Shown here: piece by piece, positions 17,999 through 41,061 of the stretch
Numbering within the stretch: the first letter of the stretch is position 1
Layout: the number at the start of each line of letters is the position of its first letter
Source: Acidimicrobiia bacterium
Lineage (GTDB): Bacteria; Actinomycetota; Acidimicrobiia; Spongiisociales; ZC4RG35
Assembly: GCA_035305585.1 (NCBI GenBank)
Contig: DATGOV010000020.1
Coordinates: 39,325-103,324 of the forward strand
Direction of reading: 5' to 3'
Length of the DNA stretch: 64,000 nt
Made by a program: the position numbers and the translations under genes
Notes under the pieces: model-generated
The model's input: the letters and a program-made list of their open reading frames with translations, nothing else
Told to the model about the DNA's origin: nothing
The model's database searches: none

Positions 17999-18020
17999 GG
18001 CGGCGACGCTTCGAGAGCCG

Positions 18021-24844: not shown

Positions 24845-25122
24845 CTCGATCCTTTCACTGCGCCGGGGCCCGGTCGTGACCATCGGATGCGGTCAACCGA
24901 ACCCCGAGACTGGGCTGTCCATACGGACGTCTCCTCTTCCGATTCCAAGCCGTGAACGGATCGGATGGCTGGTTCCGAGATGTCTTTCGGCGGTTCCTAG
25001 CCTTTCTCTTCTCCGTCTCGCCGCTCACAGCCCCTGTGTTTTCGACTCTGCCGTATCCAGGGGCCGCTGTTGAGGGCCTAAGGTCCCGCCGGGCTAGGGG
25101 CCTTCGTGAGAAATTCCGCCCG

Positions 25123-25167
25123 TCTGTGAAGATTTCTGCGGCGCTCAGCCGCAGAAATCTTCACAGA
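25123..25167 (-). terminator. Perfect AT-rich hairpin 15 nt downstream of the trmB-like stop
   Basis: ctgtgaagatttctgcggc (25124-25142), loop gctca, gccgcagaaatcttcacag (25148-25166), plus a flanking T:A pair. No U-tract follows. Confidence 0.5.
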
Positions 25168-25181
25168 GTGGGGGTCGGCGA

Positions 25182-26003
25182 TCAGCGGGCGATGTCGAGC
25201 GCCTGAAGGGCTTTTTCGAAGGTGATCGCCTGCTCCCACATCGCTTCGAAGGTGACGCGGAGGGCGGCAGCGAGGGCCGGGTGCTCGACCACCATCATCG
25301 TCGCCTCGGCGCCGGAGGCGACCGGGTCGTCGAGGGCGAACATCACCAACGAGCGGTCGACGATCCCCATCTTCAATGGCAGCTCTTCGACGAACCTCGC
25401 CTCCTCGCCGGCCTCGATGAATCGGCGGATGCCTTCGACCGTGGCGGGATCCGAGAGGAGCCCGATCTCGTAGATGGAACGGGCCCGGTAACGCTTCAAA
25501 CCGGCGATTCCCGTGACGTTCTCCTGGACCGGCAGGGCGATGGGGGGCTTCGTGAACACGAGGATCTCTTCGCGCACCTTCTCGGAGATCTCGGCGGTGT
25601 ACTGGGAGATCGTGGCGTTGCCCCGCAGGACCTGGATGAAGTCGAGAGGCTCGGTGTGGTCTCGCCCGGAGTCGAACTCCGGCTCCAGACGGTCGATGAG
25701 ATCGGAGCCGGTGCTCTCGATGTCTTTCATACGGCTGCGGTGCTCGTCGAGCAGTCGTCCCACGGCCGCGGCGGGCGGCATCGCCGAATAGCGGATCACG
25801 GCGCCGGGCCAACTCGAGGCGAACCCTCGGTCGATCAGGCTCCGCAGCACGTCGTAGATCCGAGCTCGCGGAATCGCCGCACGGCGGGCGATCTCTGCCG
25901 CGGTGAAGGAATCCCTGCCCAGCAAGGCGACATACGCCTTCGCCTCGTATGTCGTCAGGCCCAGGCTGGTGAGTTCGGCGATGCTCTGCGTGTAAGCCTC
26001 CAC
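25182..26003 (-). CDS. TrmB-family transcriptional regulator
   Basis: N-terminal LGLTTYEAKAYVALLGRDSFTAAEIARRAAIPRARIYDVLRSLIDRGF winged HTH, followed by a TrmB-type C-terminal domain. Confidence 0.8.
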   Translation of the reverse strand: MEAYTQSIAELTSLGLTTYEAKAYVALLGRDSFTAAEIARRAAIPRARIYDVLRSLIDRGFASSWPGAVIRYSAMPPAAAVGRLLDEHRSRMKDIESTGSDLIDRLEPEFDSGRDHTEPLDFIQVLRGNATISQYTAEISEKVREEILVFTKPPIALPVQENVTGIAGLKRYRARSIYEIGLLSDPATVEGIRRFIEAGEEARFVEELPLKMGIVDRSLVMFALDDPVASGAEATMMVVEHPALAAALRVTFEAMWEQAITFEKALQALDIAR

Positions 26004-26165: not shown

Positions 26166-28544
26166 TTGTCCTCGAGAAGGGGTGTGATCGCGGCGGTCCT
26201 GATGTCGGCGGTCCTCGTCGCTTGCCAGGGCGACGACGGCTCCGCGGCCGACACGACGTCGGGCACCGGCTCGACCAACACGACCGTCGCCACGTCCACC
26301 ACCGTTACAGCCGCCACCACGACGCCGACGCCTCCCTCGACGACAACGACCGAACCGCAAGAAGTCCATCCGTTCGACTGGCAGGCGCTCGAGGTGGCCG
26401 AGTTCGAGAGCCGGGAGAAAGGGGGAGGGTTCGGGGCCATCGTTCCGACTCCCTCGGGCAACTGGCTGCTCGGCGGGTCGGTGATCGACGAAGATGGGAT
26501 ACCTCGGCCGATGGTGTGGCATTCGGCGGACGGCCTGGAGTGGGAGCCCAAGGAGCTCCCTACCACCGACCGCGGCATGACGGTGATGGGCGGCGCATGG
26601 TCGGGTGACACGGGTCTGCTCGCCGGCCACATGGCCGGTCCCGGCTCGAACACCACGGCTGTCGTGTGGACGGTCGACGAGAGCGGCAACGGCGATCTCG
26701 TGGAGGTCGACACCTTCCCCGTGGGGATGGAGGTCACGAAAGTGGAGGCCCAGCCGGGAGGCGGATTCGTGCTCGCTGGATGGTCCGCCGACCGGTCGGT
26801 GTTGTTCAGATCCGAAGACGGCCGGAATTGGACCCGGGATCCACGTGCGGACGAGATGCTCGACGACCTGACCTTTCCCTTCATCCGGGATCTCGCCGCC
26901 GGCGACCTCGGCCTCCTCGTCATGGTCGTGGACGAGCGGGGCCAGAACGACCTCGGTGTTCTGTTGCTCGATCGAGGAGATGGTCTCGAGGAGGTGGCCC
27001 GGATCGAACACGAATCCGACGTCGACCTCAACGGCGCCGTGGTCACCGGAGCCCAGTTCCAGGTCTACGGGGCCGTCCGTTCCGGGTCTGCCTACGAGAG
27101 CGCCATCTGGGTGTCACACGACGGCGACGAGTGGTCGAGGTCGACCCCGACGATCTCGATCGACGACGGTCATCTGGCGTCCAACGTCTACGGAAACGCC
27201 TTCATCGACGCCGTTCGTGACGCCGATGGGCTCGTCGGTGTGGTCTTCGAAGCCAACTCGTATCTGTTCGTTGGCTCCGAGGACGGAACCGATTGGACCG
27301 AGATCCCGATCGAAGGCGGCGTCGAAGGCGGCATCTTGGACACCGATGTCCCGTTCCTCGACGAGATGGCTGCATCCGGGGGAGTGGTGCTAGCGACGTC
27401 GACCGAACTGCCGACGCCTTTCCTCTTTCGAGTCGAAGGTGGCCGGGCAACCCAGGTGGTGCACGATGCACTGCCGATGCCCCTCGAGTCGGTGACGATC
27501 ACCGATTCGGTAGTGGACGGTAACCGGGTGGTGACGTTGGCCGACCGGGTCGGGGCGAGCCGCCACCTGTCCGAAGAAGGGTCAGCTTCCTCGCAGGTCG
27601 TTGCCGTCGGCCTGGACGGCGAGGTCGAAGCGAGCGAACCCGTTCCCGACCTCTTGATGTCTGGCATCGCCCTCACATCGGACGGAGTGGCTGTGGTCGG
27701 ATACGAGCGATTCATCGCCAGGTGGCTCGGTGAGGGCACGATCGATCCGAGAGCGTGGTGGGGCTCGACGATCCCCGAACTCACCGAAGTCGACACCGGG
27801 AGCCCTCCGGAGGAGCGAACGAAACGACTCGGGAACGTCGCCGTGATCGACGCCGGGCTGGTTGGGTTCGGGACTCATTTCATCGAGACCGGCGTCAATG
27901 CCCCGATCTTCTGGTACAGCGCCGACGGCAAGTCGTGGGAAGAAGTCCCGGCCCCCGACGAGCGGGCCACCATCAACGTGGCCCGACGAGGCCTGTGCGT
28001 CTTGCCCGACGGGGGAGCCATGGCGATCGGTCGTCACCAGACGGAGTCAGGGCCTGCCCCGGCGACCTGGGTGACGGCCGACGGCCGTTCGTGGGACCTC
28101 ACGGTGTCTGGGCCAGAGCGATTCGCAGCGGAGGGATTGGTCGAGTTGTGGGGATGCTTGGACGCCGGGGACCGTACGATCGTGCTGGGATCTGTCGGGA
28201 CTCCATCCGTAGCGTCTGCGTGGGAGACCACGGACGGCAGGGAGTTCACACCGATCGAGACGCCCGACGCGGGAGCCTCGAGCAGATGGTGGTCGGCGGC
28301 TGTCGGTCCGGATGGCTCCTTGTACCTGCTCGGGCGTTATGTCGTCGAGGGTGAGTCGCAGCAAGTGCTGGGCGTGGTGGGGCCCGATGGAACGGAGTCG
28401 TTGATCGGTCTCGAGGTCGAGGCCCTCATGGGTCCGACCGGGCCGGCGGCGCTGAGTGACCTGTACGTCGTCGACGACCATCTCGTGCTCCTGGGGACGA
28501 TGCTGGGCGATGCCCGGATCTGGACGGCGCCTCTGTCGCCTTGA
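26166..28544 (+). CDS. Secreted BNR/Asp-box repeat beta-propeller lipoprotein
   Basis: TTG start after GGGGGAG; lipobox LVAC; Thr/Pro-rich linker. Seven SxDGxxW-type boxes: HSADGLEW, RSEDGRNW, VSHDGDEW, GSEDGTDW, YSADGKSW, VTADGRSW, ETTDGREF. Confidence 0.7.
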   Translation: MSSRRGVIAAVLMSAVLVACQGDDGSAADTTSGTGSTNTTVATSTTVTAATTTPTPPSTTTTEPQEVHPFDWQALEVAEFESREKGGGFGAIVPTPSGNWLLGGSVIDEDGIPRPMVWHSADGLEWEPKELPTTDRGMTVMGGAWSGDTGLLAGHMAGPGSNTTAVVWTVDESGNGDLVEVDTFPVGMEVTKVEAQPGGGFVLAGWSADRSVLFRSEDGRNWTRDPRADEMLDDLTFPFIRDLAAGDLGLLVMVVDERGQNDLGVLLLDRGDGLEEVARIEHESDVDLNGAVVTGAQFQVYGAVRSGSAYESAIWVSHDGDEWSRSTPTISIDDGHLASNVYGNAFIDAVRDADGLVGVVFEANSYLFVGSEDGTDWTEIPIEGGVEGGILDTDVPFLDEMAASGGVVLATSTELPTPFLFRVEGGRATQVVHDALPMPLESVTITDSVVDGNRVVTLADRVGASRHLSEEGSASSQVVAVGLDGEVEASEPVPDLLMSGIALTSDGVAVVGYERFIARWLGEGTIDPRAWWGSTIPELTEVDTGSPPEERTKRLGNVAVIDAGLVGFGTHFIETGVNAPIFWYSADGKSWEEVPAPDERATINVARRGLCVLPDGGAMAIGRHQTESGPAPATWVTADGRSWDLTVSGPERFAAEGLVELWGCLDAGDRTIVLGSVGTPSVASAWETTDGREFTPIETPDAGASSRWWSAAVGPDGSLYLLGRYVVEGESQQVLGVVGPDGTESLIGLEVEALMGPTGPAALSDLYVVDDHLVLLGTMLGDARIWTAPLSP

Positions 28545-28590: not shown

Positions 28591-28797
28591 GTGACTCAGG
28601 AAACAACAGAACCGACCGTGATCCGAGCCTACCCCGACGGGCCCTTCCTCGTCCGAGGCGACTTCGTCCTGGAGGACACCGAGCAGGGCGAGGTGCCGCT
28701 ACGGCGTTCCGTGATCGCCCTGTGCCGCTGCGGCCTTTCCCGCAACGCTCCCATGTGCGACGGGAGTCACCGCTCGCGGTCCCGCTCGACGACGTAA
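28591..28797 (+). CDS. CDGSH iron-sulfur domain protein
   Basis: CRCGLSRNAPMCDGSH matches the CDGSH [2Fe-2S] signature. 68 aa, GTG start. Confidence 0.8.
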   Translation: MTQETTEPTVIRAYPDGPFLVRGDFVLEDTEQGEVPLRRSVIALCRCGLSRNAPMCDGSHRSRSRSTT

Positions 28798-29730
28798 CTC
28801 GGACAGGGAGTTCGCCGGCACCCGGAAGCGAGTCCCGGCATACGGAACCCCGCCACAGATCCGGTAGAGGAACGCCAGCCACACGCAGACGGCTCGCTCG
28901 GCGAACCAAAGCGGCGCGAACCACGACGTTCTGGCGGGAAAGAATCGGCGCCCACCGTGCCGCCTCCTTCCCGCCTCCGCCACGCCCACTGTCGCCAGCG
29001 CCGCCAGTGCCACGCCGCGGCCCGACCGGGCTAGGCGGGTCCACCCGATCGCCGGTACCACCGACAGGAACCCGATGAGCTTGCCCGGTTGGGCGAAGTC
29101 GTCGTAGGCCTGGCGGGGGCGCTGCTCGAGGAACCGCCGAAGTGTCCCGGGGAGGCGGCGAACATAGATGTCAGGACGTTCGGCGACCCGTCCCCCATGC
29201 GCCGTCACCGTCCGGATCAACTCGAGGTTCTCGTACATGACCTCGTCCGAGTAGCCGCCCATCGCAACGAAGAAGGATCGTCGTACGCCGAGCGTCCCGG
29301 GGCTGTCGGCAGCCAACGCCCGATTGAGGAGGGTGCGCGCCGTGTCCCATGCCGCGTACCAGGGCATCGGATCGAAGTAGTTCTGCGGTCGAACCAGGTC
29401 GGCGGTTCGCAGAGCCTCGCACATCGCTTCGAGTGCCGGACGCGAGTAGCGGACGTCATCGTCGGCGACGATCACTGCCTCGTGGGACGCAGCCTCCATG
29501 CCCACGTGGACGCCTATCACCTTCCCGTACCGCCGTGGCCGGTTCATCACCGGCAGGTGCCGCACGCGTGGGGCCCAGGCCTCCCGATTGGCGACGAAGA
29601 CATCGCGGTCGGACCCGTCCGCCACGATCACCTCGACGTGGTCGGACAGCCATCGCAGGTAGTCGGCCAATTCTTCGAGACCGGGCTCGTCGGCGGTCCG
29701 CCTGATCGGGAGGATGTAGGACGCTTCCAC
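28699..29730 (-). CDS. Family-2 glycosyltransferase with C-terminal membrane segment
   Basis: YILPIRR...VIVADGSD...VIVADDDVRY GT-A pattern, with a hydrophobic C-terminal third. Its 3' end overlaps the convergent CDGSH gene by 99 nt. Confidence 0.7.
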   Translation of the reverse strand: MEASYILPIRRTADEPGLEELADYLRWLSDHVEVIVADGSDRDVFVANREAWAPRVRHLPVMNRPRRYGKVIGVHVGMEAASHEAVIVADDDVRYSRPALEAMCEALRTADLVRPQNYFDPMPWYAAWDTARTLLNRALAADSPGTLGVRRSFFVAMGGYSDEVMYENLELIRTVTAHGGRVAERPDIYVRRLPGTLRRFLEQRPRQAYDDFAQPGKLIGFLSVVPAIGWTRLARSGRGVALAALATVGVAEAGRRRHGGRRFFPARTSWFAPLWFAERAVCVWLAFLYRICGGVPYAGTRFRVPANSLSELRRRAGPRAVTPVAHGSVAGKAAAAQGDHGTP

Positions 29731-29734
29731 TGGG

Positions 29735-30736
29735 TCAGGCTCGAGTGGTCGCCGCTTCGAGCAGGCTGCTGCGCCCCCCGCGCCACGACTCGAGCAACCG
29801 ATCGGACGCGGCCGCTTCCACGAAGGAGAGGGCTTGGGCGCCGAACAGGATGTCCGAGGCGAGGTCGGGCTCGTCTTCGGCCAGACGGCCGGCGAGGTCG
29901 TAGGTGGCGATCATCGAGTGGACGGCGTCGGCTTCCACGTGCTCGTCGTGGAAATCGGTCGTCTCCGGGCCGAAACCGAGTCGTCGGAGACCGTTGCCGT
30001 AGCGTCGGTTGGGGAGGGGAGACCCCAGCTCGAACAAGGCGAGATGGCCCACCGCCGCCGCGCGCCACCGGCGGTGGAGGCCGAACAGCGACATGAGATT
30101 GACGTTCGCGAGGGTCGTGCCGGGCACCGCCGCCAGATAGGCGCCGTTGCGGGTGTCCAAGCCCAGAGTCTCCATCATCGACACGAACAAGTGGGCGTGG
30201 ACACGCTCTGGCTTGCCGCCCCCGTATTCGTCGGCCTGGATCTCGGCGAACGCCGCCTTGGCGGTGCTCGACAGCCTCGGCAGGGCGAATGTATGGGGGT
30301 CGGCCTCTTTGAAGTGGTAGGTCGAGCGATGGACGACGAACTCCTCGAACTGGTCGAGGGTGGCCTCGTGTTCCATGTACACGCCGAACGGCGAGACCGC
30401 TTCGTCGAGATCGCGGAGCCGAGCCGGCACGTCCGCGGGGGCCACTGGCGTGGGGGGCACCGCCTGGAGGAGGGCGTCTTGGAAGGCACGCTCCATGCGA
30501 AGGCGGACCGCCAGCAGGTCGAGATCCCACTCCTTTTCCACCGGGACGCCCTCGAGGCCGCGGTACACGAGTTCGTAGCAGAGGTAGAGGGCGAGTTGCA
30601 TGTCGTCGTCGGCGAGCGGGTCGTCGGGATCCGGGGGAGGAGGCGAAACCGGCTCGTCTCGGGCGATGCGGATCACGAGGTCGGACCAGTCACCGCGGGC
30701 AGCGGGAATCGAAGAAGGAGCGTCGGACGGTCTCAT
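29735..30736 (-). CDS. Heme-oxygenase-like iron-containing redox enzyme family protein
   Basis: QLALYLCYELVYRG...AEIQADEYGGG....H..LF...M..LGL.....HLALFE....DEHVEADAVH helix-bundle ligand pattern. ATG 30736 is chosen because the longer ORF runs into sthA. Confidence 0.65.
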   Translation of the reverse strand: MRPSDAPSSIPAARGDWSDLVIRIARDEPVSPPPPDPDDPLADDDMQLALYLCYELVYRGLEGVPVEKEWDLDLLAVRLRMERAFQDALLQAVPPTPVAPADVPARLRDLDEAVSPFGVYMEHEATLDQFEEFVVHRSTYHFKEADPHTFALPRLSSTAKAAFAEIQADEYGGGKPERVHAHLFVSMMETLGLDTRNGAYLAAVPGTTLANVNLMSLFGLHRRWRAAAVGHLALFELGSPLPNRRYGNGLRRLGFGPETTDFHDEHVEADAVHSMIATYDLAGRLAEDEPDLASDILFGAQALSFVEAAASDRLLESWRGGRSSLLEAATTRA

Positions 30737-30770
30737 GCGAATCCGTATACCCTTCTCTGCCTGGTTCGAA

Positions 30771-32177
30771 TCAGGCTGGATCGCCGGCGCGATGTCTCGC
30801 CAGGTTCTGCAGGGCGTCGTAAGCGGCGTACTTGTAGAGCTCAGATCGGGTCGGGATGTTGAAGGTCGTGTGCAGGAACCGGTCGATCGGTCCCTTGGCA
30901 TGCATGACCGCTTGGCCGATGTGCACCAACTCGGCAGCGTCCTCGCCGATCACATGGACCCCGAGGAGACGCCGGTCCTCACGAGCCAACACGAGCTTGA
31001 TCATCCCGTCGGTCGACCCCACGATGTGGCTGCGAGCGTTGTGAGCGAACCAGGAGCGCCCCACCTCGTAGTCGATTCCGGCGGCCGCCGCGGACTCCTC
31101 CGTCATACCCACCATCGCCACCTCTGGAATCGAGTAGACACCCACCGGCGGCAGCCAGTCGAGCGTCAGGTCGAATGGAACTTGGAAGGCGTGACAGGCG
31201 GCGATGCGGCCCTGTTCTGCAGAAACCGAAGCCAGTGCCGGCGGGCCGATCACGTCGCCGGCGGCGTAGATCCGGGAAGCAGTGGTCTGGAAGTGCTCGT
31301 CGACGACGATCCGCCGTCGCTCGTCGAGTTGCACCCCTGCCTCCTCCAGACCCAGGTCGCCGGTGTTGCCGACCCGGCCGGCGGCGAACAGCACCTTCTC
31401 CGTGTGGAGCACCTGCCCCGACTCGGTTTCCACGACCAACGCACCGTCTCTCCGCTGGATCCGGGCTCCGGGGCTGTTGACGAGCACCCGCATGCCCATC
31501 TTCTCGAACGCGTCGCGCACCATCCGGGAGATCTCGGCGTCCATGGCTCCGAGGAGGCGATCGGCGCCATCGATCACTGTCACCTCCACGCCCAAGGCGG
31601 CGAAGATCGACGCGTATTCACATCCCACTGGCCCGCCTCCGATGACGACCAGGCTGGAGGGGATGGCGTCGATGTCGAGGATCGTGTCGGAGTCGAACAC
31701 GTCGGGGTCCTCGAACGGCACAGAAGCGGGCCGGAACGGACTGGACCCGGTGGCGATCAGGATCACGTCGGCCGTCACCACGACGACGTCGTCTCCTGTG
31801 TCGATGGCCACGGTGCGGTCCGGCTGCAGTCGGGCCGCCCCCCGCAACACCGTGACGTCGAGGCCTTCCAGATTGCGGCGGACCTCCTCACCCATCGTCT
31901 CGGAGACCTGGGCAGCCCGAGCACGGAGCCGCTCCAATGCGAAGTCCGGGGTCAGTTGGAAGCCGAGACCGTACACCTCGCGGCGTCGAAATCCGGTCAG
32001 ATACAGCGCAGTCTCACGCAACGTCTTGGTGGGGATCCCGCCACGGTTGACAGGTGCCCCGCCCAGCCTGGCTCCTTTGTCGACGACGGCGACGCTCTTG
32101 CCGAAGTAGGCAGCCAACGCCGCCGCCTTCTCTCCGGCCGGACCGGAGCCTACGACCAAGAGGTCGAAACCCTCCAT
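30771..32177 (-). CDS. sthA: Soluble pyridine nucleotide transhydrogenase-like flavoprotein
   Basis: FDLLVVGSGPAGEKAA FAD motif. NRGGIPTKTLRE occupies the position of the redox-active CxxxxC, as in SthA. ATG 32177 is preceded by GGGGAGG. Confidence 0.75.
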   Translation of the reverse strand: MEGFDLLVVGSGPAGEKAAALAAYFGKSVAVVDKGARLGGAPVNRGGIPTKTLRETALYLTGFRRREVYGLGFQLTPDFALERLRARAAQVSETMGEEVRRNLEGLDVTVLRGAARLQPDRTVAIDTGDDVVVVTADVILIATGSSPFRPASVPFEDPDVFDSDTILDIDAIPSSLVVIGGGPVGCEYASIFAALGVEVTVIDGADRLLGAMDAEISRMVRDAFEKMGMRVLVNSPGARIQRRDGALVVETESGQVLHTEKVLFAAGRVGNTGDLGLEEAGVQLDERRRIVVDEHFQTTASRIYAAGDVIGPPALASVSAEQGRIAACHAFQVPFDLTLDWLPPVGVYSIPEVAMVGMTEESAAAAGIDYEVGRSWFAHNARSHIVGSTDGMIKLVLAREDRRLLGVHVIGEDAAELVHIGQAVMHAKGPIDRFLHTTFNIPTRSELYKYAAYDALQNLARHRAGDPA

Positions 32178-32354
32178 ACGCGCCTCCCCGCGTCTCTGAC
32201 TACATGACGATAGGGCCGACACGGTCGGTCGACACCGCTGATTTCGGGGTCGATTCCACGGGCCTGCGAACGGCTCGATCTATACACTCGATGTGAGGCG
32301 GGGTACGAGAGGCGGTCTTCGGCTCCACCGCGTATCGACCGAGAGGCGGGTGCC

Positions 32355-33920
32355 ATGACCGAACGACCCCCGAAGCCCGGCGACTCCGGCGCCGAGTCGC
32401 ATACCTACGCCCTCCTCGGCCTCCACAAGATGGCGGGCGACTTCGAGGGGGTGGAGGTCCCTGGTCTGCGTCCGTCGTCGATCGGCACGCAGTTGCGGGC
32501 CGTCGCGGAAGCTCCCGAGCACGAGATCTCCCAGTCGGCGCGTCTCGCCGTGCTCCATTCGTTGGCCGAAGCCGGCTTTCCCGGACGGGAGGCACATGCG
32601 GCCGAGTACCGGATGCTGGCGGAGACCGTGGCCGGACCGCAGAACGTCGATTCCGACCGGCTGCTCGACGACCTGCGCCGCTCGGTGGAGACCCAGACCC
32701 CGTTCAGGGAATCCGAGGTCGGTCGCAACATCGATCACCACGTAGCCGCGTTCATCGGCGAGAACGTCTGTCATATTCGACGAGTCGAAGTCAACGGCCT
32801 CCCGGCGACCTGGATCTTCTCCGAGTTCGAGACCGACGCCCCGTTCGATGGCGTGGCGAACTGGGTCGACCCCCGCAACTGGCCGCAGCGCGGGCCGATG
32901 CTCTTCAAGAAGATGGACCTGGTGGGCTCGGCGACGCCCACACCCATCGCCGCCCTGTCAGAGGACCACTGGCACGGAGTCTTCCACGAGCAAGTGCAGC
33001 TGATCGATCGCGTCGACACGCTCCTCCATTGCGACTACTGGGAGGACGGCGAATCCGCCGGCATGACATACGACCTGGCGATCAGCCTCGACAACGCCCT
33101 GGAGGTGGACCGAGGCTTCCTCCTCGTCAACGACCTCGGCGACATGCGACGGGTGAAGGCATTGAAGATCGTCGGGTTCACGGATCGACGGTGGGACCGG
33201 ACGGCCCAGTTGGTGTGCCCCTACTGGACCGACTGGGTTCGGCGCGCAGTCGAAGGCGGGTCGTCGAGCACGCCCACGACCCCGACAGGAGAACCGACAG
33301 GGACTCCGGGGGGCTCCAGCGGTCCCATCGAAGACCTGATGAAAGCCTGGGTCGAGTTCTTCGGCGACGCGGCCGGTGAGTACATCGAACTCTTCTCCGA
33401 TGTGTTCGACCGCACCCGCGCGGGCGGATACTCCCTTTCGGACTGGCTCGAGGACGGGACCCGATATTGGGACCGCCTCGCCCGGGACTGGGCGAAGGCA
33501 TGGGCCTACGGGATCGACCTGCTGGACGACGTCGCCGAGGGCGGGTTGGCGAGCGATTTCAGCCCACCCGATGACCGACAGGAAGAACGAGCGCGGCCGT
33601 TGATGGCCACCGCCGCGGCCGGGGCTGCCGCCAACGCCGAGGGCACATTGGTCCCGGTTCGCGGTCTCCGGCCCGAAGACGGTCCGAGGTGCACCGAATT
33701 GGTGTCCATCGAAAGTGGAGGATTCACGATCTCTCCCTCGGATATCCAACTGTCCGTGGAGCAACTGGCGGACGGGACTTATGGAGTCCGCATCTCGACA
33801 GCCGCCGATGCGCCGCCCGGCCTCTACGTCGGCCGCCTGTCGAGTGCCGACGGGCGGACGCTCAGCCCGCTGCAGTTGTATCTGTCTCGTGCCACCAGCC
33901 GAGGAGCCACGGGACCATGA
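32355..33920 (+). CDS. Hypothetical protein (521 aa), first gene of a coupled five-gene operon
   Basis: Strong coding signal. I recognise no motif other than a possible SRPBCC-like core (NWVDPRNWP...) and a C-terminal beta-rich tail. Confidence 0.6.
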   Translation: MTERPPKPGDSGAESHTYALLGLHKMAGDFEGVEVPGLRPSSIGTQLRAVAEAPEHEISQSARLAVLHSLAEAGFPGREAHAAEYRMLAETVAGPQNVDSDRLLDDLRRSVETQTPFRESEVGRNIDHHVAAFIGENVCHIRRVEVNGLPATWIFSEFETDAPFDGVANWVDPRNWPQRGPMLFKKMDLVGSATPTPIAALSEDHWHGVFHEQVQLIDRVDTLLHCDYWEDGESAGMTYDLAISLDNALEVDRGFLLVNDLGDMRRVKALKIVGFTDRRWDRTAQLVCPYWTDWVRRAVEGGSSSTPTTPTGEPTGTPGGSSGPIEDLMKAWVEFFGDAAGEYIELFSDVFDRTRAGGYSLSDWLEDGTRYWDRLARDWAKAWAYGIDLLDDVAEGGLASDFSPPDDRQEERARPLMATAAAGAAANAEGTLVPVRGLRPEDGPRCTELVSIESGGFTISPSDIQLSVEQLADGTYGVRISTAADAPPGLYVGRLSSADGRTLSPLQLYLSRATSRGATGP

Positions 33921-36900
33921 CCGACCCCACATCGGCCGAAACCCGCCTGGGAAGACTCCTCGACCGACTGCTCAAGGCGGCAGAGGATTCGATGCATTCC
34001 GGGGACCTGGAGCAGGCTCGCGCCACGGCCGAGGAGGTCAGGGCGGTGGATCCCGACAACCGGCGGGCCGAGCGGATCCTCCGGTTGGTCGCCTCCCGTC
34101 AGCTGGCGCCGGCGGGCGAGAGGGCGCTGATGACGCTCCTCTTCTCGGACCTCGTCGGGTCCACCATGCTCTCGGAACGGGTGCAGCCCGAGGAACTGCG
34201 CGACCTGTTCGCCCTCTACCGGGCTGCCGCCCACGAAGCGGTCGAGCGCTACAGCGGCTCGGTGATGCACTACGCCGGCGACGGGATCCTCGCCGGGTTC
34301 GGGTATCCCAAGCCCCACGAGGACGATGCCCGCCGAGCGGTGCTCGCCGGCCTCGACCTGGTGACGGCCATGGCCGACGCCCGATCCGACCTCGAGCGGC
34401 GGTTTGGATCTGCAGTCGCCGTGCGGGTCGGCATCCACACGGGCCGTGTCGTCATCACCGACCTGCGTCGCAACGGCTCGGTGCGGGAGCGGGACAGCAT
34501 CGTCGGACTGGCGCCGAACCTCGCGGCTCGCATCCAGTCCGAGGCGGAACCCGACACCGTCGTGATCAGCGATGTCACCCACCAGCTAGTCGACACCGAT
34601 TTCGTCATGCACTCTCTCGGAGTTCGGGACCTGAAGGGAATCAGCCGGCCCGTCGAGGTCTACGTGGTGCAGCGTCCCCGGTACGCCGGCGCCCGCTTCG
34701 AGGCAGAGCGATACCGAAAGGGAGGGCTGGTCGGGCGCGAGACCCAGAAGCAGAGGCTCCTCGACGCTTGGGAGAAGGTGCGCGACGAGCAAGGGGGCGG
34801 CAGAGCGTTCCTCCTCGTCGGGGAGGCGGGAATCGGCAAGACCCGGCTCGTCGCCGAGGTGCTGGACCGCGTCGAGGCCGGAGGCGGGACCGCACTGGGG
34901 GCGGGCAGCTTGCCCTACTACTCGAACGTGTCGCTGTGGCCCATCACACGCGCCCTGGAACGGGCGATCGACGGGGAGGGCGACGAGGCCCTCGTCGCCT
35001 ACTTCGAGCGTCTCGAGTTGGATCCGGGCCGTTTGGTTCCTTTCCTCGCCCCGCTGCTCGGGGTCGACGCGTCGGAGTACCCCACGCCGGAGCTCGAGCC
35101 GAGCGCATTCCTCGACGAGACCCTCAACCGGATCGTGGAATGGCTCAGCGCCCTCGGGGAGTCGAAACCGCACCTCGTGATCTTGGAGGACCTCCATTGG
35201 GCCGACCCCTCGACGGTGACGTTGGCGGGACGTCTGGCGGCCAATTGCCCGTCGTCCGTCATGATGATCGCCACGACCCGCGACCCGACCACGATCCCGT
35301 GGCTGGACGACGTCGAGGTGGTGAACCTCGGGCGGCTCGACGCCGAGGCCTCCAGGCGCCTCGTCGAGAACGTGGCGGGGGGACGGGAGCTCAGCGAGGA
35401 TCTGCGCCAGTCGATCGTCGAGCGCGCCGCCGGTGTGCCGCTCTTCGTCGAGGAGTTGACCCGGTCGTGTCTCGATGCCGATCGCTCCGATCCCATTCCC
35501 CTTCGACTCCAGGAACTGTTCACCTGGAGGCTCAAGGCACCGGACGTCGATCTCGGCATCGTCCAGGTGGCGGCCACCGTGGGCCCCGGATTCTCAGCTT
35601 CCGTCGTCGCCGAGGTGGTCGGTGACGACGGGCGAGTGGCGGATCAGATCCAGGTGTTGCTCGACGAGGGGATCGTCGAGCCCGCGGTCGGTCCCGACTC
35701 CTACCGGTTCCGCCACGCGCTCATGCGCGATGCGGCGTACGAAACGCAGGTCCTCGACCTTCGCATCAGAACCCACGCCCGCCTCGCCGAGGTGCTCACC
35801 GCGAGGGGCGCGGAGCCCGCGGTCATCGCCGAGCATTTCGACCGTGCCGGCGATCCCGCTCAGGCAGCGAGCCTGTACCTCGTTGCCGGCCAGTCCGAAC
35901 AGGCGCGCGGCGCTCATACCGAGGCGGCTCGGCTCTTCACCCGCGCCATCGAACTGCTCGAACAGGTCCCCGAAGCCGAGGAGCGGGATCTGCAGGAACT
36001 GATGGCACGGATGATGCGAGGGCTGAGCGTCAGCTCCACCCAGGGGTACGCCGCACCGGAAGTACAGGCCGACCACCGGCGGGCCGAGGTGCTCGCTTCC
36101 CGGCTGGATGCCCGGCTCGAGGTCCTTCCGTCGTTGATCGCCATATGGGCCTACTGGCTGACTTCCGGTGACCTGTCGACGGCCCGGGGGTTGGTCGAGA
36201 GACTGGAGAACCTCGTCTCCCGCCCCGAGTTCGCCTGGTTCGAGCCCGAAGTCGACTCGTGCGCCGGGTGGCTCGACCTGTACCGAGGCGAGCTCGGCTC
36301 GGCCCGTGAGCACCTGGAACGCGCGGTGACGGGATTCAACGCCCGTCCGTTCGATCAGATCGTCTCCCCGTTCTGGCCGCTGCCCAACGACCCCGTCGCC
36401 GTCTCCGAGATCGCCCTCGCCTGCGTGTCCGCGATCCAGGGCGACCTGGAAGAGGCCGACCGGTGGCAGGTCGGCGCCATACGGCGTAGCGAGGAGGTCG
36501 GGTTTCCTCGCGGGCCGTTCAGCCTGGCGTTCGTGAAGACGTACGCGGCGTGGATCCAGCGCTTCCTCGGCGACCACGACAAAGCCCGGCTCCTCGGCGC
36601 CGAGGTCGTGGGGATCGGCCAGAGCTACGGCTACGCCTACTGGATGTTGCTCGGCTCGTCCTATGTCGCCGCCGGACGCCCCGGTGGGGCGCCGGAGCGC
36701 GGGTTCTTGGAGGAGACGATCGCCAACATCCGTCTGCTCGGCCAGGAAGCATTCGTCGCCTCCAACCTCTCCTACTTGGCGATCCTCAGCCACGAGGACG
36801 GCCTGGTGGAGGAGGCGCTCTCGCTCGTCGAAGAGGCGCTCGACGTCGTCGCCAAGACCGGCGAGTGCCTCCACCTTCCCGAGCTCCTCCGCCATCGTGC

Positions 36901-37147
36901 CCGCTACTCCCTGGAACTGGGGGGCGCCCCGACGGAGATCGTCGCCGACCTGCGAGAGGCGTTGGACGAGTCCCGACGCCAAGGGGCGAAGGTGGCTCAC
37001 CTGCGGGCTGCGTTGGCGATCGCCCGGCTCCCTGAAGAGCACCGACCGAAGGAGTGGCGGGAGTGGCTGGCTTCCGCCCGAGACGCGGTGACTGGAGCGA
37101 TAGGCGAGGTTCGAGAGGCTGACGAAGTCCTCGCCGGAGAGCGATGA
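33917..37147 (+). CDS. Class III adenylate/guanylate cyclase fused to a STAND P-loop NTPase and TPR-like repeats
   Basis: Cyclase motifs LFSDLVGST, GDGILAGFG, RVGIHTGRV. Walker A LLVGEAGIGKTRLV, then LEDLHWAD, then a long helical repeat C-terminus. I see no C-terminal HTH. ATGA overlap with the upstream gene. Confidence 0.85.
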   Translation: MTDPTSAETRLGRLLDRLLKAAEDSMHSGDLEQARATAEEVRAVDPDNRRAERILRLVASRQLAPAGERALMTLLFSDLVGSTMLSERVQPEELRDLFALYRAAAHEAVERYSGSVMHYAGDGILAGFGYPKPHEDDARRAVLAGLDLVTAMADARSDLERRFGSAVAVRVGIHTGRVVITDLRRNGSVRERDSIVGLAPNLAARIQSEAEPDTVVISDVTHQLVDTDFVMHSLGVRDLKGISRPVEVYVVQRPRYAGARFEAERYRKGGLVGRETQKQRLLDAWEKVRDEQGGGRAFLLVGEAGIGKTRLVAEVLDRVEAGGGTALGAGSLPYYSNVSLWPITRALERAIDGEGDEALVAYFERLELDPGRLVPFLAPLLGVDASEYPTPELEPSAFLDETLNRIVEWLSALGESKPHLVILEDLHWADPSTVTLAGRLAANCPSSVMMIATTRDPTTIPWLDDVEVVNLGRLDAEASRRLVENVAGGRELSEDLRQSIVERAAGVPLFVEELTRSCLDADRSDPIPLRLQELFTWRLKAPDVDLGIVQVAATVGPGFSASVVAEVVGDDGRVADQIQVLLDEGIVEPAVGPDSYRFRHALMRDAAYETQVLDLRIRTHARLAEVLTARGAEPAVIAEHFDRAGDPAQAASLYLVAGQSEQARGAHTEAARLFTRAIELLEQVPEAEERDLQELMARMMRGLSVSSTQGYAAPEVQADHRRAEVLASRLDARLEVLPSLIAIWAYWLTSGDLSTARGLVERLENLVSRPEFAWFEPEVDSCAGWLDLYRGELGSAREHLERAVTGFNARPFDQIVSPFWPLPNDPVAVSEIALACVSAIQGDLEEADRWQVGAIRRSEEVGFPRGPFSLAFVKTYAAWIQRFLGDHDKARLLGAEVVGIGQSYGYAYWMLLGSSYVAAGRPGGAPERGFLEETIANIRLLGQEAFVASNLSYLAILSHEDGLVEEALSLVEEALDVVAKTGECLHLPELLRHRARYSLELGGAPTEIVADLREALDESRRQGAKVAHLRAALAIARLPEEHRPKEWREWLASARDAVTGAIGEVREADEVLAGER

Positions 37148-39171
37148 CACCTCCTCGTGTCGCCATCCTGGGGGGTGGGATGGCCGGCTTGGCGACGGCG
37201 TGGGAGCTGAGCCGCGGGGACTGGAGGAAGGACTTCTCGTCGATCACCGTGTACCAACGCGGCTGGCGGCTGGGCGGAAAGGGAGCGAGCAGCAGGGGAG
37301 AGCACGGTCGCATCGAAGAGCACGGCCTGCACGTGCTGCTCGGGTACTACGACGCCACGTTCGAGCTCCTGCGGGAGGTCTACGCCGAGCTCGATCGCGC
37401 CACGACCGACCCGAACTGCCCACTCCGGAGTTGGCGCGACGCGGTCGAGCAGGCCCCCGACGTCGGCCTGACCGAGCTCCACGCTGGGTCGTGGAGGCAC
37501 TTCGTCACCCGTTTCTCGACCAACGACCGCCTTCCGGGCGAGCCGGGCGCGGCCAGCCGCCCCCTCCGGCCCCTCGAACTGGCCGTGAGGGCGCTCCGAT
37601 TGCTGATCGATTTCCACCGCGATGTCGGCGATCGGGGCGAGGTCTACCTGAGCGCCTCGCCGACACCTCGCGCTGCTCGCTCCGGGCTCGATCTGCTGAT
37701 GCGCACCGCTTCGTACACGACGCTCGGCGCCGCCCTCGAGGTGTTGCAGCGGGCCGCCACGGCGACGACTCCGCCCCGGTCGTCCACTGTCAGCAGGCTC
37801 GGAGCGATGCTGGAGGCGTGGCGATCCGGAATCCGCCGTGTCGTAGATGCCGACCCGACCGCACGTCGCACCTGGCAACTGGTGGACCTGGTGGCAACGA
37901 ACCTCGTGGGCATGGCAGCCGACGGCATCCTCCTCGGAGGCGACTACCGCCGGATCGACCACCTCGACTACCGAGACTGGCTGGCCGAGCACGGTGCGTC
38001 GGCGGAGACCCTCGACTCGCCGATCGTGCGGGGAATGTACGACCTCACCTTCGCCTACGAACGGGGCGACCGAAGCCGGCCCCGCTTCTCGGCGGGATTG
38101 GGCCTGGAACTCGCCCAGCGGATGCTCTTCGACTTCAAGGGAGCGATCTTCTGGCGGATGCGGGCCGGGATGGGCGAAACCGTCTTCGCTCCGCTCTATC
38201 AAGCACTGGCCCACCGCGGAGTGGCATTCGAGTTCTTCCATCGACTCGACGAAGTCGTCGTGGAGAACCGTGCCGTAGCTGCCCTCCGATTCACGCAGCA
38301 GGCCGAGCTGGCGGAAGGACGGACTGCCTACGAGCCTCTCATCCGAGTCCGGGGCATTCCTGCTTGGCCGGCGCGCCCGCTGGCCGCCCAACTCGCCGCC
38401 GATCCCGGCGACGACCTCGAGACCCACGGACCGAACCCGGGCGCGGGAACCCGACAGCTGCGGGCCGGCGAGGACTTCGACGTCGTCGTGATGGCAGTGC
38501 CGGTCGGCATGGTGCCCTATGTGGCCCGGGGTCTGACAGAAGCCGACTCTCGCTGGCGACAGATGGTCGACAACGTCGGAACCGTGGCCACCCGATCCGC
38601 CCAACTCTGGCTCCGCTCGTCCGAGCACCAGCTGGGGTGGGACGGCCCGGCGGGAGTCACGTTGAGCGGCTTCGGCGACACCTTCGACACTTGGGCATCG
38701 ATGTCACACCTCCTCTCCGTCGAGGAGTGGCCACCGGTCGACCCGCCCCGCAGCCTCGCCTACCTCTGCGGCGCGATGCCCGACGTCGGCCCGGGGACCG
38801 CCTCGGCGTCGGTGCGGGAGGCGGTGACCCGATTCCTCGACAACGACGTCGCCGCCCTGTGGCCCAGGGCTGTCGCAGATGGTGGATTCCGGTGGGACGA
38901 GCTGTGGGACGACAAGGCGAGGGTCGGCCCCGACCGCCTGCGAGCCCAGTACCTGCGGGCCAACGTCGACCCGTCCGACCGGTACGTCCAGTCCCTCCCC
39001 GGTTCGGGCCGATTCAGGATCGCTCCCGGCGACACCGGCTTCCGGCGCCTCGTCGTGGCAGGCGACTGGACCGCATGCGGCCTCGATGCCGGGTGCGTCG
39101 AGGCGGCTGTCCGGTCGGCTCGGCTGGCGGCCGACGCCGTACGGCAACCAGCCCGTTGGAGGGAACCATGA
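37144..39171 (+). CDS. FAD-dependent oxidoreductase, phytoene-desaturase/amine-oxidase superfamily (COG3349-like)
   Basis: VAILGGGMAGLATAWEL, GWRLGGK, EHGLHVLLGYYDATFELL. 675 aa. ATGA overlap with the upstream gene. Confidence 0.75.
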   Translation: MTPPRVAILGGGMAGLATAWELSRGDWRKDFSSITVYQRGWRLGGKGASSRGEHGRIEEHGLHVLLGYYDATFELLREVYAELDRATTDPNCPLRSWRDAVEQAPDVGLTELHAGSWRHFVTRFSTNDRLPGEPGAASRPLRPLELAVRALRLLIDFHRDVGDRGEVYLSASPTPRAARSGLDLLMRTASYTTLGAALEVLQRAATATTPPRSSTVSRLGAMLEAWRSGIRRVVDADPTARRTWQLVDLVATNLVGMAADGILLGGDYRRIDHLDYRDWLAEHGASAETLDSPIVRGMYDLTFAYERGDRSRPRFSAGLGLELAQRMLFDFKGAIFWRMRAGMGETVFAPLYQALAHRGVAFEFFHRLDEVVVENRAVAALRFTQQAELAEGRTAYEPLIRVRGIPAWPARPLAAQLAADPGDDLETHGPNPGAGTRQLRAGEDFDVVVMAVPVGMVPYVARGLTEADSRWRQMVDNVGTVATRSAQLWLRSSEHQLGWDGPAGVTLSGFGDTFDTWASMSHLLSVEEWPPVDPPRSLAYLCGAMPDVGPGTASASVREAVTRFLDNDVAALWPRAVADGGFRWDELWDDKARVGPDRLRAQYLRANVDPSDRYVQSLPGSGRFRIAPGDTGFRRLVVAGDWTACGLDAGCVEAAVRSARLAADAVRQPARWREP

Positions 39172-39707
39172 CCGCCGCGGCCGATCGTCTCGCCCGGGAC
39201 GTGCAGATGTATGGCGCCCTGTCGGCTGCGTCGGTGGTGGCACGCTACGCCGCCAAGGTCGAGCAGGCGATGGCATCCGTGGTCGACGAAGGCTGGGGCC
39301 CGGAAGCTGTCGCCTCGATGGTGATGTTCGTCCGCCGATCGATGCAGCCGCTCCTCGACACGGGAGCACGCCCGGAACGAGTAGAGCTTCCACCGGTGAG
39401 CGCCGGAGAAACTGCCGTCGGCGCGCTGTGGCTCCACAACACCGCCCCCGTCGCCGCCCAGGGCGGTGTGCGGCTCGCGGTGTCGGATCTCGTGGCGGCC
39501 GGGGGAGAGACGATCCCCGCCTCCGCCATCTCCGTATCCCCCCAGGAACTCGAGTCGCTCCCGTCACGAGCGAGACGAGACATCCGTCTCGTCGTCACCG
39601 TTCCGGTCGGCCAGCCCGCCGGGTGGTATCACGGCTGGGTCTTCCTGGAGTCGGCGCCGGAGGCACCCGTCATGGTGACACTGAGTGTTGAAGAGACGAG
39701 CCGATGA
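39168..39707 (+). CDS. Hypothetical protein (179 aa)
   Basis: The in-frame ATG 39168 overlaps the upstream stop (ATGA). Helical N-terminal half followed by a beta-rich tail (VTVPVGQPAGWYHGWVFL). Confidence 0.55.
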   Translation: MTAAADRLARDVQMYGALSAASVVARYAAKVEQAMASVVDEGWGPEAVASMVMFVRRSMQPLLDTGARPERVELPPVSAGETAVGALWLHNTAPVAAQGGVRLAVSDLVAAGGETIPASAISVSPQELESLPSRARRDIRLVVTVPVGQPAGWYHGWVFLESAPEAPVMVTLSVEETSR

Positions 39708-40735
39708 CGACGACCGACCGCGACGTCGAGACCCAGCTCGAGGAGTACGGACGGATCGCCCGGCGCAAGGCGCTCGGCTACCTCGACGTCGACGGCGACC
39801 CCGAGCACCTGCGAACCCCCGCCACCGACTACCTGCTTCGGCCCGGCAAGGCGTTGCGTCCTGCCCTCTGCCTGGCGACCTGCGGCGCCCTCGGTGGCGA
39901 CCCCGACCGTGCCCTGGTCACCGCCGCCGCTCTCGAACTCCTCCACACCGCATTCCTCGTCCACGACGACGTCGAGGACGACAGCGACCTGCGCCGAGGT
40001 GGGCCCACTCTCCACCGTCGATACGGGCGGGCAGTAGCCATCAACACCGGCGACGCCCTGTTCGTCTGTGCGATGGCGGCACTGGACGACAACCGAGAGG
40101 TACTCGGACGTCGACTCGCCACCCGGCTCGCCGGGGAATTCCGATTCATGGCCCGCCAGACCGTGGAGGGCCAGGCCATGGAACTGGGGTGGCAGCGGCA
40201 GGGACGGATCGACCTGACTCCCGACGACTACCTCGACCTCATCATGAAGAAGACCTGCTGGTACACGACCGTATTGCCGTTGCGTTCCGGCGCCCTCATC
40301 GCTGGACGCCGACCGGGCGAACTCGAGGCTCTCGTGCGATTCGGGTTCTTCCTCGGAGCCGCGTTCCAGATCCGCGACGACGTCCTCAACCTCACCGGCG
40401 GGCGCGCCTACGGCAAGGAGCTCCTCGGAGACATCCGCGAGGGGAAGAGGACCCTGATGCTCATCCACCTGTTGGCGGTAGCCGATCCGGGGGAGCGGCG
40501 CCGGCTGGAGCGCTTCGTGCGGTTGCCGGCCCACGAGCGACCGCCCCCGATGATCGAGGAGGTGGCGGCGATGATGCATCACCACGGGAGCGTCGCCTTC
40601 GCCGAGGAGTTCGGACGAGGGATCGCACGGTCCGCTTCGGTGGCGTTCGAAGAAGCGTTCGGCTCCGTGCCCCATTCGCCGGAGCGGCGATTCATCGCCG
40701 ATGTCGTTCCCTACATGGTCGAGCGGGACCGCTGA
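39704..40735 (+). CDS. Polyprenyl diphosphate synthase (GGPP synthase-like)
   Basis: First Asp-rich motif LVHDDVEDDSDLRRG. The second motif is FQIRDDVLN (DDxxN). ATGA overlap with the upstream gene. Confidence 0.85.
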   Translation: MTTTDRDVETQLEEYGRIARRKALGYLDVDGDPEHLRTPATDYLLRPGKALRPALCLATCGALGGDPDRALVTAAALELLHTAFLVHDDVEDDSDLRRGGPTLHRRYGRAVAINTGDALFVCAMAALDDNREVLGRRLATRLAGEFRFMARQTVEGQAMELGWQRQGRIDLTPDDYLDLIMKKTCWYTTVLPLRSGALIAGRRPGELEALVRFGFFLGAAFQIRDDVLNLTGGRAYGKELLGDIREGKRTLMLIHLLAVADPGERRRLERFVRLPAHERPPPMIEEVAAMMHHHGSVAFAEEFGRGIARSASVAFEEAFGSVPHSPERRFIADVVPYMVERDR

Positions 40736-41061
40736 GCGGAGCGAAAGGACGAGTACAGGCGCCTGGCGTTTCCCAGCGGATCGGAATAGTACGCGTCGGG
40801 TGTGACGTCGAGTGCCACCGTCCGCCGGGCTTCGGCGACTCTCGGTCGAGTAGGGGCGAAGCGCGTGAGCTCGGCGGCGCGGGGCTCGAGCGAGCCGTCG
40901 GGTCGCACCAGGCCGAAGTGCCTCTCGTGACGCGCTCCCGCGGGATCGTACGGTGGCCGGTCCCACAGTTCCTCGGCGTAGTCGGCGAAGCACCAGAGCA
41001 TCGCGAACCGGTCATCCATCCCCGGCCAGTCGGGCGATATGGTCCCGGTACCAGCGTCCAC
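40711..41061 (-). pseudogene. Possible C-terminal remnant of a glycoside hydrolase (or a small overlapping ORF)
   Basis: WCFADYAEELWDRPPYD....ERHFGLVRPDGSLEP resembles the C-terminal strand region of GH5/cellulase-like enzymes. There is no room for the catalytic N-terminus, because bglB occupies the upstream DNA. Confidence 0.3.

Follow-up and report, generated by a model that had tools for sequence, protein, structure and literature searches.

An Actinomycetota-specific five-gene operon that embeds a cyclase-STAND-TPR signalling protein among isoprenoid-type enzymes and two new protein families

The DNA analysed here, referred to below as the window, is a stretch of 64,000 nucleotides from an Acidimicrobiia bacterium (GTDB lineage Bacteria; Actinomycetota; Acidimicrobiia; Spongiisociales; ZC4RG35; GenBank assembly GCA_035305585.1, contig DATGOV010000020.1, positions 39,325 to 103,324 of the forward strand). 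It contains five consecutive plus-strand genes, numbered 1 to 5 below, which form a self-contained operon specific to Actinomycetota whose parts evolve together. They encode a protein with a predicted START/Bet v 1-like domain; a class III nucleotidyl cyclase fused to a STAND P-loop nucleoside triphosphatase (NTPase) and TPR-type repeats; a flavoenzyme with the fold of the phytoene desaturase (PDS)/amine-oxidase superfamily; a small protein of a new family; and a probable short-chain trans-isoprenyl diphosphate synthase. We class the set as an isoprenoid operon in which a signalling protein of the STAND family is embedded. Its features are as follows (aa, amino acids).

32223-32354: 132-bp intergenic stretch upstream of gene 1, the presumed operon promoter region (open reading frame map and sequence)
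32355-33920, plus strand: gene 1, 521 aa
32769-33254, plus strand: predicted START/Bet v 1-like (SRPBCC) domain of gene 1 (AF2 model, Foldseek, family conservation)
33639-33884, plus strand: predicted beta-sandwich at the C-terminus of gene 1, with a homologue in the C-terminal domain of gene 4
33917-37147, plus strand: gene 2, 1076 aa
34130-34669, plus strand: cyclase catalytic domain of gene 2, aa 72-251 (alignment to 3r5g and 2w01)
34727-35245, plus strand: STAND NTPase core of gene 2 (Walker A GEAGIGKT, Walker B LVILEDLHW)
37144-39171, plus strand: gene 3, 675 aa
39168-39707, plus strand: gene 4, 179 aa
39704-40735, plus strand: gene 5, 343 aa

The open reading frame (ORF) map and the sequence bear out the five ORFs listed in a preliminary description of the window, with an ATGA at each of the four junctions (33917-33920, 37144-37147, 39168-39171 and 39704-39707) in which the start codon overlaps the preceding stop. 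As ATGA occurs 131 times in the window, a single such junction is uninformative; four successive ones in the correct frame, together with their conservation in relatives, are beyond chance. In all five genes the GC content of third codon positions (0.78-0.86) far exceeds that of second positions (0.47-0.54; the window as a whole has about 67% GC), which argues that all five are coding, including the two that have no database match, and independent gene callers returned the identical five products from other assemblies of the same organism. No terminator-like site was found within or beside the set on the plus strand, no Rfam element was found within or beside it, and a search of both strands there gave no sigma-70-like promoter site, a consensus that says little for an actinobacterium of 67% GC. 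A 116-aa antisense ORF called automatically at 40711-41061 (minus strand) overlaps the 3' end of gene 5, as does one at 18357-18707 of locus L081 (loci found in the scans described below carry the prefix L), and is probably spurious.

Gene-neighbourhood conservation, which the preliminary description had proposed as a check, proved to be strong. A search with gene 1 returned 239 homologues from Acidimicrobiia, Jiangellales and Ornithinimicrobium, all annotated as 'hypothetical' and without Pfam domains. In every context looked up, namely those of an Ornithinimicrobium sp. (L001), two Actinomycetota metagenome-assembled genomes (MAGs; L002-L005), Pedococcus cremeus (L006) and a Blastococcus sp. 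(L007), the order gene 1, cyclase/AAA_16 gene, flavoenzyme, small ORF and polyprenyl synthase is identical and the flanks are different; the same order is also present in Intrasporangium and in many Acidimicrobiia MAGs. A scan of one genome per species across 185,579 species yielded 73 loci, and a metagenome scan yielded 77 more. When 66 non-redundant loci with at least 8.6 kb downstream of gene 1 were searched by tblastn with the five window proteins, 57 carried all five genes in order, seven lacked only a detectable gene 4, one lacked only gene 2 (L056, with a second case, L143, among the metagenome contigs) and one had gene 1 alone (L051). Four of the seven loci without a detected gene 4 were checked, and a gap of 650-760 nt lies at the gene 4 position in each.

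Gene 1 is 28-79% identical to the window protein across loci, and the percent identities of the individual genes co-vary (Spearman 0.70-0.92), which fits inheritance as a unit. Junction spacing is retained as well: the 4-nt overlap is found between genes 3 and 4 in 33 of 52 evaluable loci and between genes 4 and 5 in 41 of 51, and the junctions between genes 1 and 2 and between genes 2 and 3 are mostly 4-nt overlaps or gaps of at most 10 nt. Carriers in the species scan are labelled Actinomycetota with a single exception, a 604-kb contig labelled as an Acidobacteriota MAG (L011), for which mis-binning or mislabelling is suspected and horizontal transfer is less probable.

The departures from the common arrangement are informative as to which genes form the core. 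Two loci of the Acidimicrobiaceae-type branch, L056 (9977-15088) and L143 (3355-8429), hold genes 1, 3, 4 and 5, gene 1 being followed by gene 3 without an intervening cyclase-STAND gene, and look like natural variants without the regulator, so that genes 1, 3, 4 and 5 appear as the core and the cyclase as an add-on. At L051 (9959-15414), a gene 1 homologue (500 aa, 35% identity) occurs without genes 3-5 and is convergent with a paralogous 1101-aa cyclase-AAA_16-TPR gene, the two being flanked by FecCD and PALP genes, and this adjacency may point to a pairing between genes 1 and 2. The obligate co-expression proposed in the preliminary description thus stands as far as a co-expressed five-gene unit is concerned, but not as an obligate one, since L056 and L143 are without gene 2 and the gene 1 of L051 is without the enzymes.

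Other variants concern the content or state of the set. An insertion of about 1 kb separates genes 4 and 5 in L040, L042, L049 and probably L104; in L040 it contains a 185-aa ORF (17703-18260), and the roughly 185-aa ORF of L040, L042 and L049 has no Pfam match and no similarity to gene 1 or gene 4. In a distant Acidimicrobiaceae branch (L052-L080, for example L052 9953-11137), gene 1 encodes only about 390 aa, the N-terminal helical domain of about 135 residues being absent. The tblastn matches of L073-L075 and L078-L080 are fragmentary and may represent frameshifted assemblies or decaying copies. Two MAGs carry two copies of the cassette on separate contigs, MFD01716.bin.3.63 (L066 and L068) and MFD05377.bin.2.102 (L073 and L080).

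Gene 2 encodes, in order, a class III nucleotidyl cyclase domain (Pfam Guanylate_cyc, aa 72-251, 63.6 bits against a gathering threshold of 21.9), a STAND P-loop NTPase (AAA_16, aa 271-443, 71.7 bits) and TPR-type repeats (TPR_12, 35.3 bits against 30.1). A Walker A/B core, preceded by an effector domain at the N-terminus and followed by a repeat sensor at the C-terminus, marks it as a STAND protein, and Pfam finds no helix-turn-helix (HTH) or other DNA-binding domain, as the preliminary description had noted. The nearest NCBIfam model, TIGR03903, aligns with aa 68-1034 at 377.6 bits, below its cutoff of 705.75, and the match begins at model position 284 and includes no kinase. PDB matches of the cyclase domain are Cya2, CyaB and CyaC, at E 3e-19 and weaker. 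Comparison with CyaB (3r5g) and Cya2 (2w01) reveals the metal-binding Asp residues (FSD and GDG) and the transition-state Asn...Arg pair (NLAAR), and these residues, like Walker A GxxGxGK[ST] and Walker B hhhhEDLHW, are kept in 57 homologues. Judged by these residues, the cyclase is probably active. The base-specifying pair, on the other hand, is non-canonical, with His (mostly Gln in the family) for Lys and Ser for Asp, and corresponds neither to the adenine Lys/Asp nor to the guanine Glu/Cys pair; nucleotide preference is for this reason not predictable from the sequence.

The effector-STAND-TPR layout of gene 2 matches the logic of Avs proteins, and the cyclase domain has weak PADLOC matches to PycC (best E 3.6e-14). 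Together with the patchy distribution and differing neighbourhoods of the set, this recalls an anti-phage or conflict system in which gene 2 would act as a STAND sensor like Avs, its Pycsar-like cyclase domain would make a cyclic nucleoside monophosphate (cNMP) alarm, and the other four products would be effectors. We regard such a role as very improbable. The PycC similarity is no better than generic class III similarity, the rest of the set matches no PADLOC model, effector models included, and Pfam identifies no cNMP-binding effector in the set. No relatives were found in 2.9 million viral contigs or in PHROGs, and the annotated flanks are of housekeeping type (transporters, peptidases, two-component systems), and neither an integrase nor a defence gene was seen among them. 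In addition, the enzymes show high conservation and diverge in step with the other members of the set, unlike fast-turnover defence genes, and the presumed sensor is absent from two variants.

The assignment of gene 5 to the trans-isoprenyl diphosphate synthases follows from a polyprenyl_synt domain (Pfam, 203.6 bits, E 3.9e-60) and the presence of both Asp-rich motifs, HDDVEDD at aa 87-93 and RDDVLN at aa 224-229, each invariant in 53 homologues. Its best PDB match, over the full length, is the geranylgeranyl diphosphate (GGPP) synthase of Thermus thermophilus (1wmw, E 1.4e-49), with which it shares the first motif VHDD[IV]ED and the second motif DDVLN. The idea that the DDxxN form of the second motif signals a loss of function was rejected, as the active Thermus enzyme has the same motif. 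The nearest NCBIfam models are short-chain IdsA (the best, 186 against a cutoff of 468) and GGPP synthases, and gene 5 falls below all equivalog cutoffs. By its motifs and closest relatives, gene 5 is probably an active short-chain trans-isoprenyl diphosphate synthase with the C20 compound GGPP as product.

Gene 3 is the most conserved of the five, its best 120 homologues being 59-76% identical. It matches Amino_oxidase, NAD_binding_8 and DAO of Pfam at the N-terminus; all its Pfam and NCBIfam matches are confined to the N-terminal parts that bind flavin adenine dinucleotide (FAD), and the FAD-binding motif is intact. Among NCBIfam models HpnE scores best (70.1 bits against a cutoff of 283); zeta-carotene desaturase scores 34.3 against 622 and PDS 24.4 against 569, and there is no equivalog-level match to phytoene desaturase, CrtI or HpnE. 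Sequence searches of the PDB were negative, and matches obtained there with the family profile were discarded as spurious, many of the aligned sequences beginning after the GxGxxG motif. The AF2 model of gene 3 (pLDDT 79, pTM 0.82) is closest in Foldseek to rice phytoene desaturase (5mog, E 8e-13, TM 0.67), with nicotine, monoamine, putrescine and L-amino-acid oxidases and protoporphyrinogen oxidase next, which places the protein in the fold of the PDS/amine-oxidase superfamily. A helical insertion of about 190 residues (about aa 140-330) is present. For genes 2, 3 and 5, then, Pfam agrees with the domains assigned in the preliminary description, and the two products it had left without an assignable family, those of genes 1 and 4, have no Pfam or NCBIfam match.

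Genes 3 and 5 could in principle serve an established pathway (carotenoid, hopanoid/squalene or menaquinone side chain), the rest of which would be encoded elsewhere in the genome; gene 5 would then be of CrtE or HopD type, and gene 3 would be a diverged form of CrtI or HpnE. Gene 3 has HpnE as its best NCBIfam match and PDS as its best structural match, Streptomyces hopanoid clusters have HpnE-type genes next to polyprenyl synthase genes, and the closest solved relative of gene 5, 1wmw, is presumably the carotenoid-pathway CrtE of T. thermophilus. We nevertheless consider this explanation improbable. The HpnE, PDS and zeta-carotene desaturase scores are all far below cutoff, and it would not account for the strict linkage of the two enzyme genes with genes 1, 2 and 4. 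Moreover, a phytoene/squalene synthase, terpene cyclase or UbiA-type gene occurs neither within about 10 kb in the window nor as a conserved neighbour of the approximately 70 loci; the earlier remarks that the set lacks a terpene cyclase and a phytoene/squalene synthase and fits no described pathway thus extend to its surroundings, where further isoprenoid pathway genes were looked for, both in the window and at these loci, and none was conserved.

Gene 1 has no match in Pfam, NCBIfam, PADLOC, PHROGs or a sequence search of the PDB (phmmer), and no Pfam match to START/Bet v 1 (SRPBCC) families even at E values up to 10. A structure search, suggested in the preliminary description, was more revealing. 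The AF2 model (pLDDT 82.5) consists of an N-terminal helical domain (aa 11-131), a helix-grip domain (aa 139-300), a long helical hairpin (aa 324-399) and a C-terminal beta-sandwich (aa 429-510). All PDB matches of the helix-grip domain belong to the START/Bet v 1 proteins (Foldseek, E ~1e-3, TM 0.5-0.64), among them norcoclaurine synthase, StarD13, StAR, CERT, the ZhuI cyclase and cytokinin-, gibberellin- and abscisic acid (ABA)-binding proteins, and in the viral library BFVD the matches are START-domain proteins of giant viruses. Over both libraries (TM 0.5-0.66, with marginal E values) the helix-grip fold of aa 139-300 is that of the START/Bet v 1 superfamily, and its structural neighbours include proteins that bind isoprenoid-derived ligands such as ABA, gibberellin, cytokinin, sterol and lutein. 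This START-like domain also contains most of the invariant residues of the gene 1 family, many of them polar (E157, E159, H207, E212, D252, R253, K268, K271, C139, C226 and Y239). A profile search of 1.84 billion representatives showed the family to be small, with 287 clusters at 50% identity, and found no informative domain fusions; an apparent fusion to LysE is a single case that looks like a gene-call artefact. Gene 1 represents a new protein family with a predicted START-like fold, and this fold makes a hydrophobic ligand more plausible. The two functional readings put forward in the preliminary description, an isoprenoid lipid modification under cNMP control and a STAND-type sensor whose ligand or effector derives from a lipid, are both conceivable.

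Gene 4 likewise has no match in Pfam, NCBIfam, PADLOC, PHROGs or a phmmer search of the PDB, and it constitutes a new protein family. Its N-terminal part contains a conserved helical segment (LxxDVQxYGxLSAAxVxxRY), its C-terminal half is rich in beta structure and includes an Ig-like beta-sandwich, and its homologues give sub-threshold Pfam matches to the Ig-like NPCBM_assoc, FixG_C and PapD_N at E values up to 10. It is the fastest-evolving member of the set (26-58% identity), and only four word-sharing homologues were found, yet the positional homologues align. When deep alignments were compared by hhalign, aa 100-175 of gene 4 matched aa 441-511 of gene 1 with a probability of 95.1% (E 3.1e-8); with shallower alignments the probability was 30%. 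Genes 1 and 4 thus have a family-specific beta-sandwich in common.

The fold and residues of gene 1 bring up a serious alternative, if a rather unlikely one: that the operon is a small terpenoid natural-product cluster in which gene 1 is a non-canonical Bet v 1/SRPBCC enzyme (for example a cyclase) acting on a GGPP-derived substrate after the flavoenzyme step, gene 4 is auxiliary and gene 2 is the regulator, comparable to the SARP/LAL-type STAND regulators inside actinobacterial biosynthetic clusters. This overlaps with the explanation preferred below and differs from it in the role of gene 1. The many invariant polar and charged residues of the START-like domain are consistent with catalysis, as is the occurrence of enzymes (norcoclaurine synthase and the ZhuI aromatase/cyclase) among its top structural matches, and both the dispensability of gene 2 in two variants and the naming of its nearest NCBIfam model for a natural-product (TOMM) link agree with a cluster regulator. 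However, we know of no terpene cyclase with a Bet v 1/SRPBCC fold and found none in the literature searched; the set includes no tailoring enzymes, transporter or resistance gene; gene 2 is without a DNA-binding output; and for a secondary-metabolite cluster, an enzyme identity of 50-68% between two classes, Acidimicrobiia and Actinomycetes, is high.

Clustering of flanking ORFs within 7 kb gave no family common to more than 10 of the approximately 70 loci, which is the reason for regarding the set as self-contained. The genes found within about 10 kb of it in the window are, upstream, those for a B12-binding protein, an octopine-dehydrogenase-like protein, a TrmB regulator, a 792-aa protein, a family 2 glycosyltransferase (GT2), Haem_oxygenas_2 and Pyr_redox_2 and, downstream, those for a family 1 glycoside hydrolase (GH1), PALP and a luciferase-like oxidoreductase. 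The nearest of these upstream is the following.

30771-32222, minus strand: Pyr_redox_2 gene, divergent from gene 1

It belongs to a group of three genes divergent from the operon (28699-32222, minus strand) that encode the GT2 glycosyltransferase, the Haem_oxygenas_2 protein (an iron-containing redox enzyme) and the Pyr_redox_2 flavoprotein disulfide reductase. At least the last of these recurs in a few close relatives (e.g., L008), outside the conserved set. The 792-aa ORF at 26166-28544 (plus strand) has no Pfam domain except a faint match to DUF6242_C, and at 22134-26003 (minus strand) the gene for a 539-aa B12-binding-domain protein overlaps the octopine/nopaline-dehydrogenase-like gene and adjoins that of the TrmB-family regulator.

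We suggest, tentatively and with a probability of about 0.45, that genes 1, 3, 4 and 5 form a self-contained C20-isoprenoid module coupled to cNMP signalling through the STAND cyclase. In this scheme gene 5 would make a short all-trans prenyl diphosphate, most likely GGPP (C20), and gene 3 would carry out a redox step (desaturation, saturation, isomerisation or dehydroxylation) on the prenyl chain or a derivative. The hydrophobic product would occupy the START/Bet v 1-like pocket of gene 1, as a carrier, a receptor or possibly a catalyst, and the beta-sandwich common to genes 1 and 4 could serve as a docking module that keeps the assembly in one piece. Class III cyclases must dimerise to be active, and inducer binding causes STAND proteins such as MalT to oligomerise. 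On the basis of these behaviours we propose that a ligand or partner at the TPR region of gene 2 would trigger nucleotide-dependent STAND oligomerisation, and that the class III cyclase domains thus dimerised would produce a cNMP, the identity of which is uncertain because of the non-canonical base-specifying pair. A link between cNMPs and isoprenoids has a precedent in Actinobacteria in the family 2B encapsulins, which have cNMP-binding domains and a polyprenyl transferase or terpene cyclase as cargo (PMC8346489).

Several points weigh against this explanation. The START-fold matches of gene 1 are marginal by E value, and its numerous invariant polar residues are as compatible with an enzyme as with a receptor. 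Gene 3 resembles PDS and HpnE only in its fold and FAD-binding N-terminus, amine oxidases being nearly as close, and its substrate may not be an isoprenoid. Neither Pfam nor NCBIfam finds a cNMP-binding domain encoded in the five-gene set, and the existence of two loci without gene 2 means that signalling is not essential to the core. As for the solitary gene 1 of L051, the adjacent STAND gene shares no more than about 25% identity with gene 2 and is encoded on the other strand, and the adjacency could be due to chance. Finally, although the operon with its conservation and modularity, the folds of genes 1 and 3, the catalytic motifs and the domain common to genes 1 and 4 are established by the analysis, we infer rather than observe the substrate, the product, the binding partners and the direction of the signal, whether from lipid to cNMP or the reverse.

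A stronger version of the same idea is a complete isoprenoid-signal pathway, in which genes 5 and 3 would make a C20-derived small molecule that binds the gene 1 START receptor, and the receptor, once loaded, would engage the STAND TPR arm and switch on the cyclase. We think it quite doubtful that the system goes this far. Such a pathway would mirror in prokaryotes the way in which PYR/PYL receptors and abscisic acid work in plants, except that its output would be a cyclic nucleotide, and its producer and receiver modules could occur apart, as the loci without gene 2 and the 'solo' gene 1 locus might illustrate.

Cyclase-STAND-TPR proteins are abundant in Actinomycetota, and to our knowledge activating ligands and physiological roles have been assigned to few of them. 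The operon ties one subfamily of them to a defined four-protein isoprenoid module and thereby offers concrete candidate ligands and partners, and gene 3 marks a clade of PDS/HpnE-related flavoenzymes that stands beside a probable GGPP synthase without a terpene or phytoene synthase. If the signal does run from lipid to cNMP, an isoprenoid input would be added to bacterial second-messenger signalling, with a bearing on the cNMP-binding domains found beside terpenoid enzymes in encapsulin and 2-methylisoborneol operons. Genetic and lipidomic work is feasible, as the carriers include cultured strains (Ornithinimicrobium pekingense DSM 21552, Pedococcus cremeus CGMCC 1.6963 and Blastococcus sp. 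CT_GayMR16). No description of the five-gene set was found in the literature searched, the coverage of which was limited and is not proof of absence. Whereas the component superfamilies are known, what is new is their strictly conserved combination, the two new families, the predicted START-like fold of one of them and the domain they share.

Each of the components can be compared with better-known relatives. The order cyclase, AAA_16 STAND and TPR found in gene 2 is also that of the mycobacterial Rv0386-type cyclase-ATPase-TPR proteins and of TIGR03903, the 'TOMM system kinase/cyclase fusion protein'; gene 2 differs in lacking the C-terminal LuxR HTH of the former and the N-terminal kinase of the latter. 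The base-specifying pair of Rv0386 is also non-canonical (Gln/Asn), and we know of no report of translational coupling to isoprenoid-type enzymes for proteins of either kind. Gene 5 differs from the Thermus GGPP synthase in not being linked to crtB or crtI. Gene 3 has the FAD-binding Rossmann N-terminus and overall three-domain fold of PDS (5mog), CrtI and HpnE, but it is about 200 residues longer, contains the large helical insertion and has no partner phytoene/squalene synthase. With START/Bet v 1 proteins (PYR/PYL, cytokinin- and gibberellin-binding proteins, StAR), several of which bind isoprenoid-derived signals, gene 1 shares the predicted helix-grip fold, but here the domain sits in a 521-aa protein with three further domains. 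PYL, which gates a signalling enzyme only when ligand-bound, provides the working analogy for gene 1.

At the level of whole operons there is a parallel with family 2B encapsulin operons and 2-methylisoborneol clusters, which likewise bring together actinobacterial cyclic-nucleotide signalling and isoprenoid enzymes (PMC8346489). The five-gene set is not itself a family 2 encapsulin system, there being no shell gene and the fold of gene 1 not being HK97, and gene 5 is sub-threshold against the model of the encapsulin cargo polyprenyl transferase (179 against a cutoff of 450). The two also differ in the side of signalling that they represent: the encapsulin and 2-methylisoborneol systems combine a cNMP receptor with an HK97-fold shell, whereas the operon described here, which has no such shell, encodes a probable cNMP producer.

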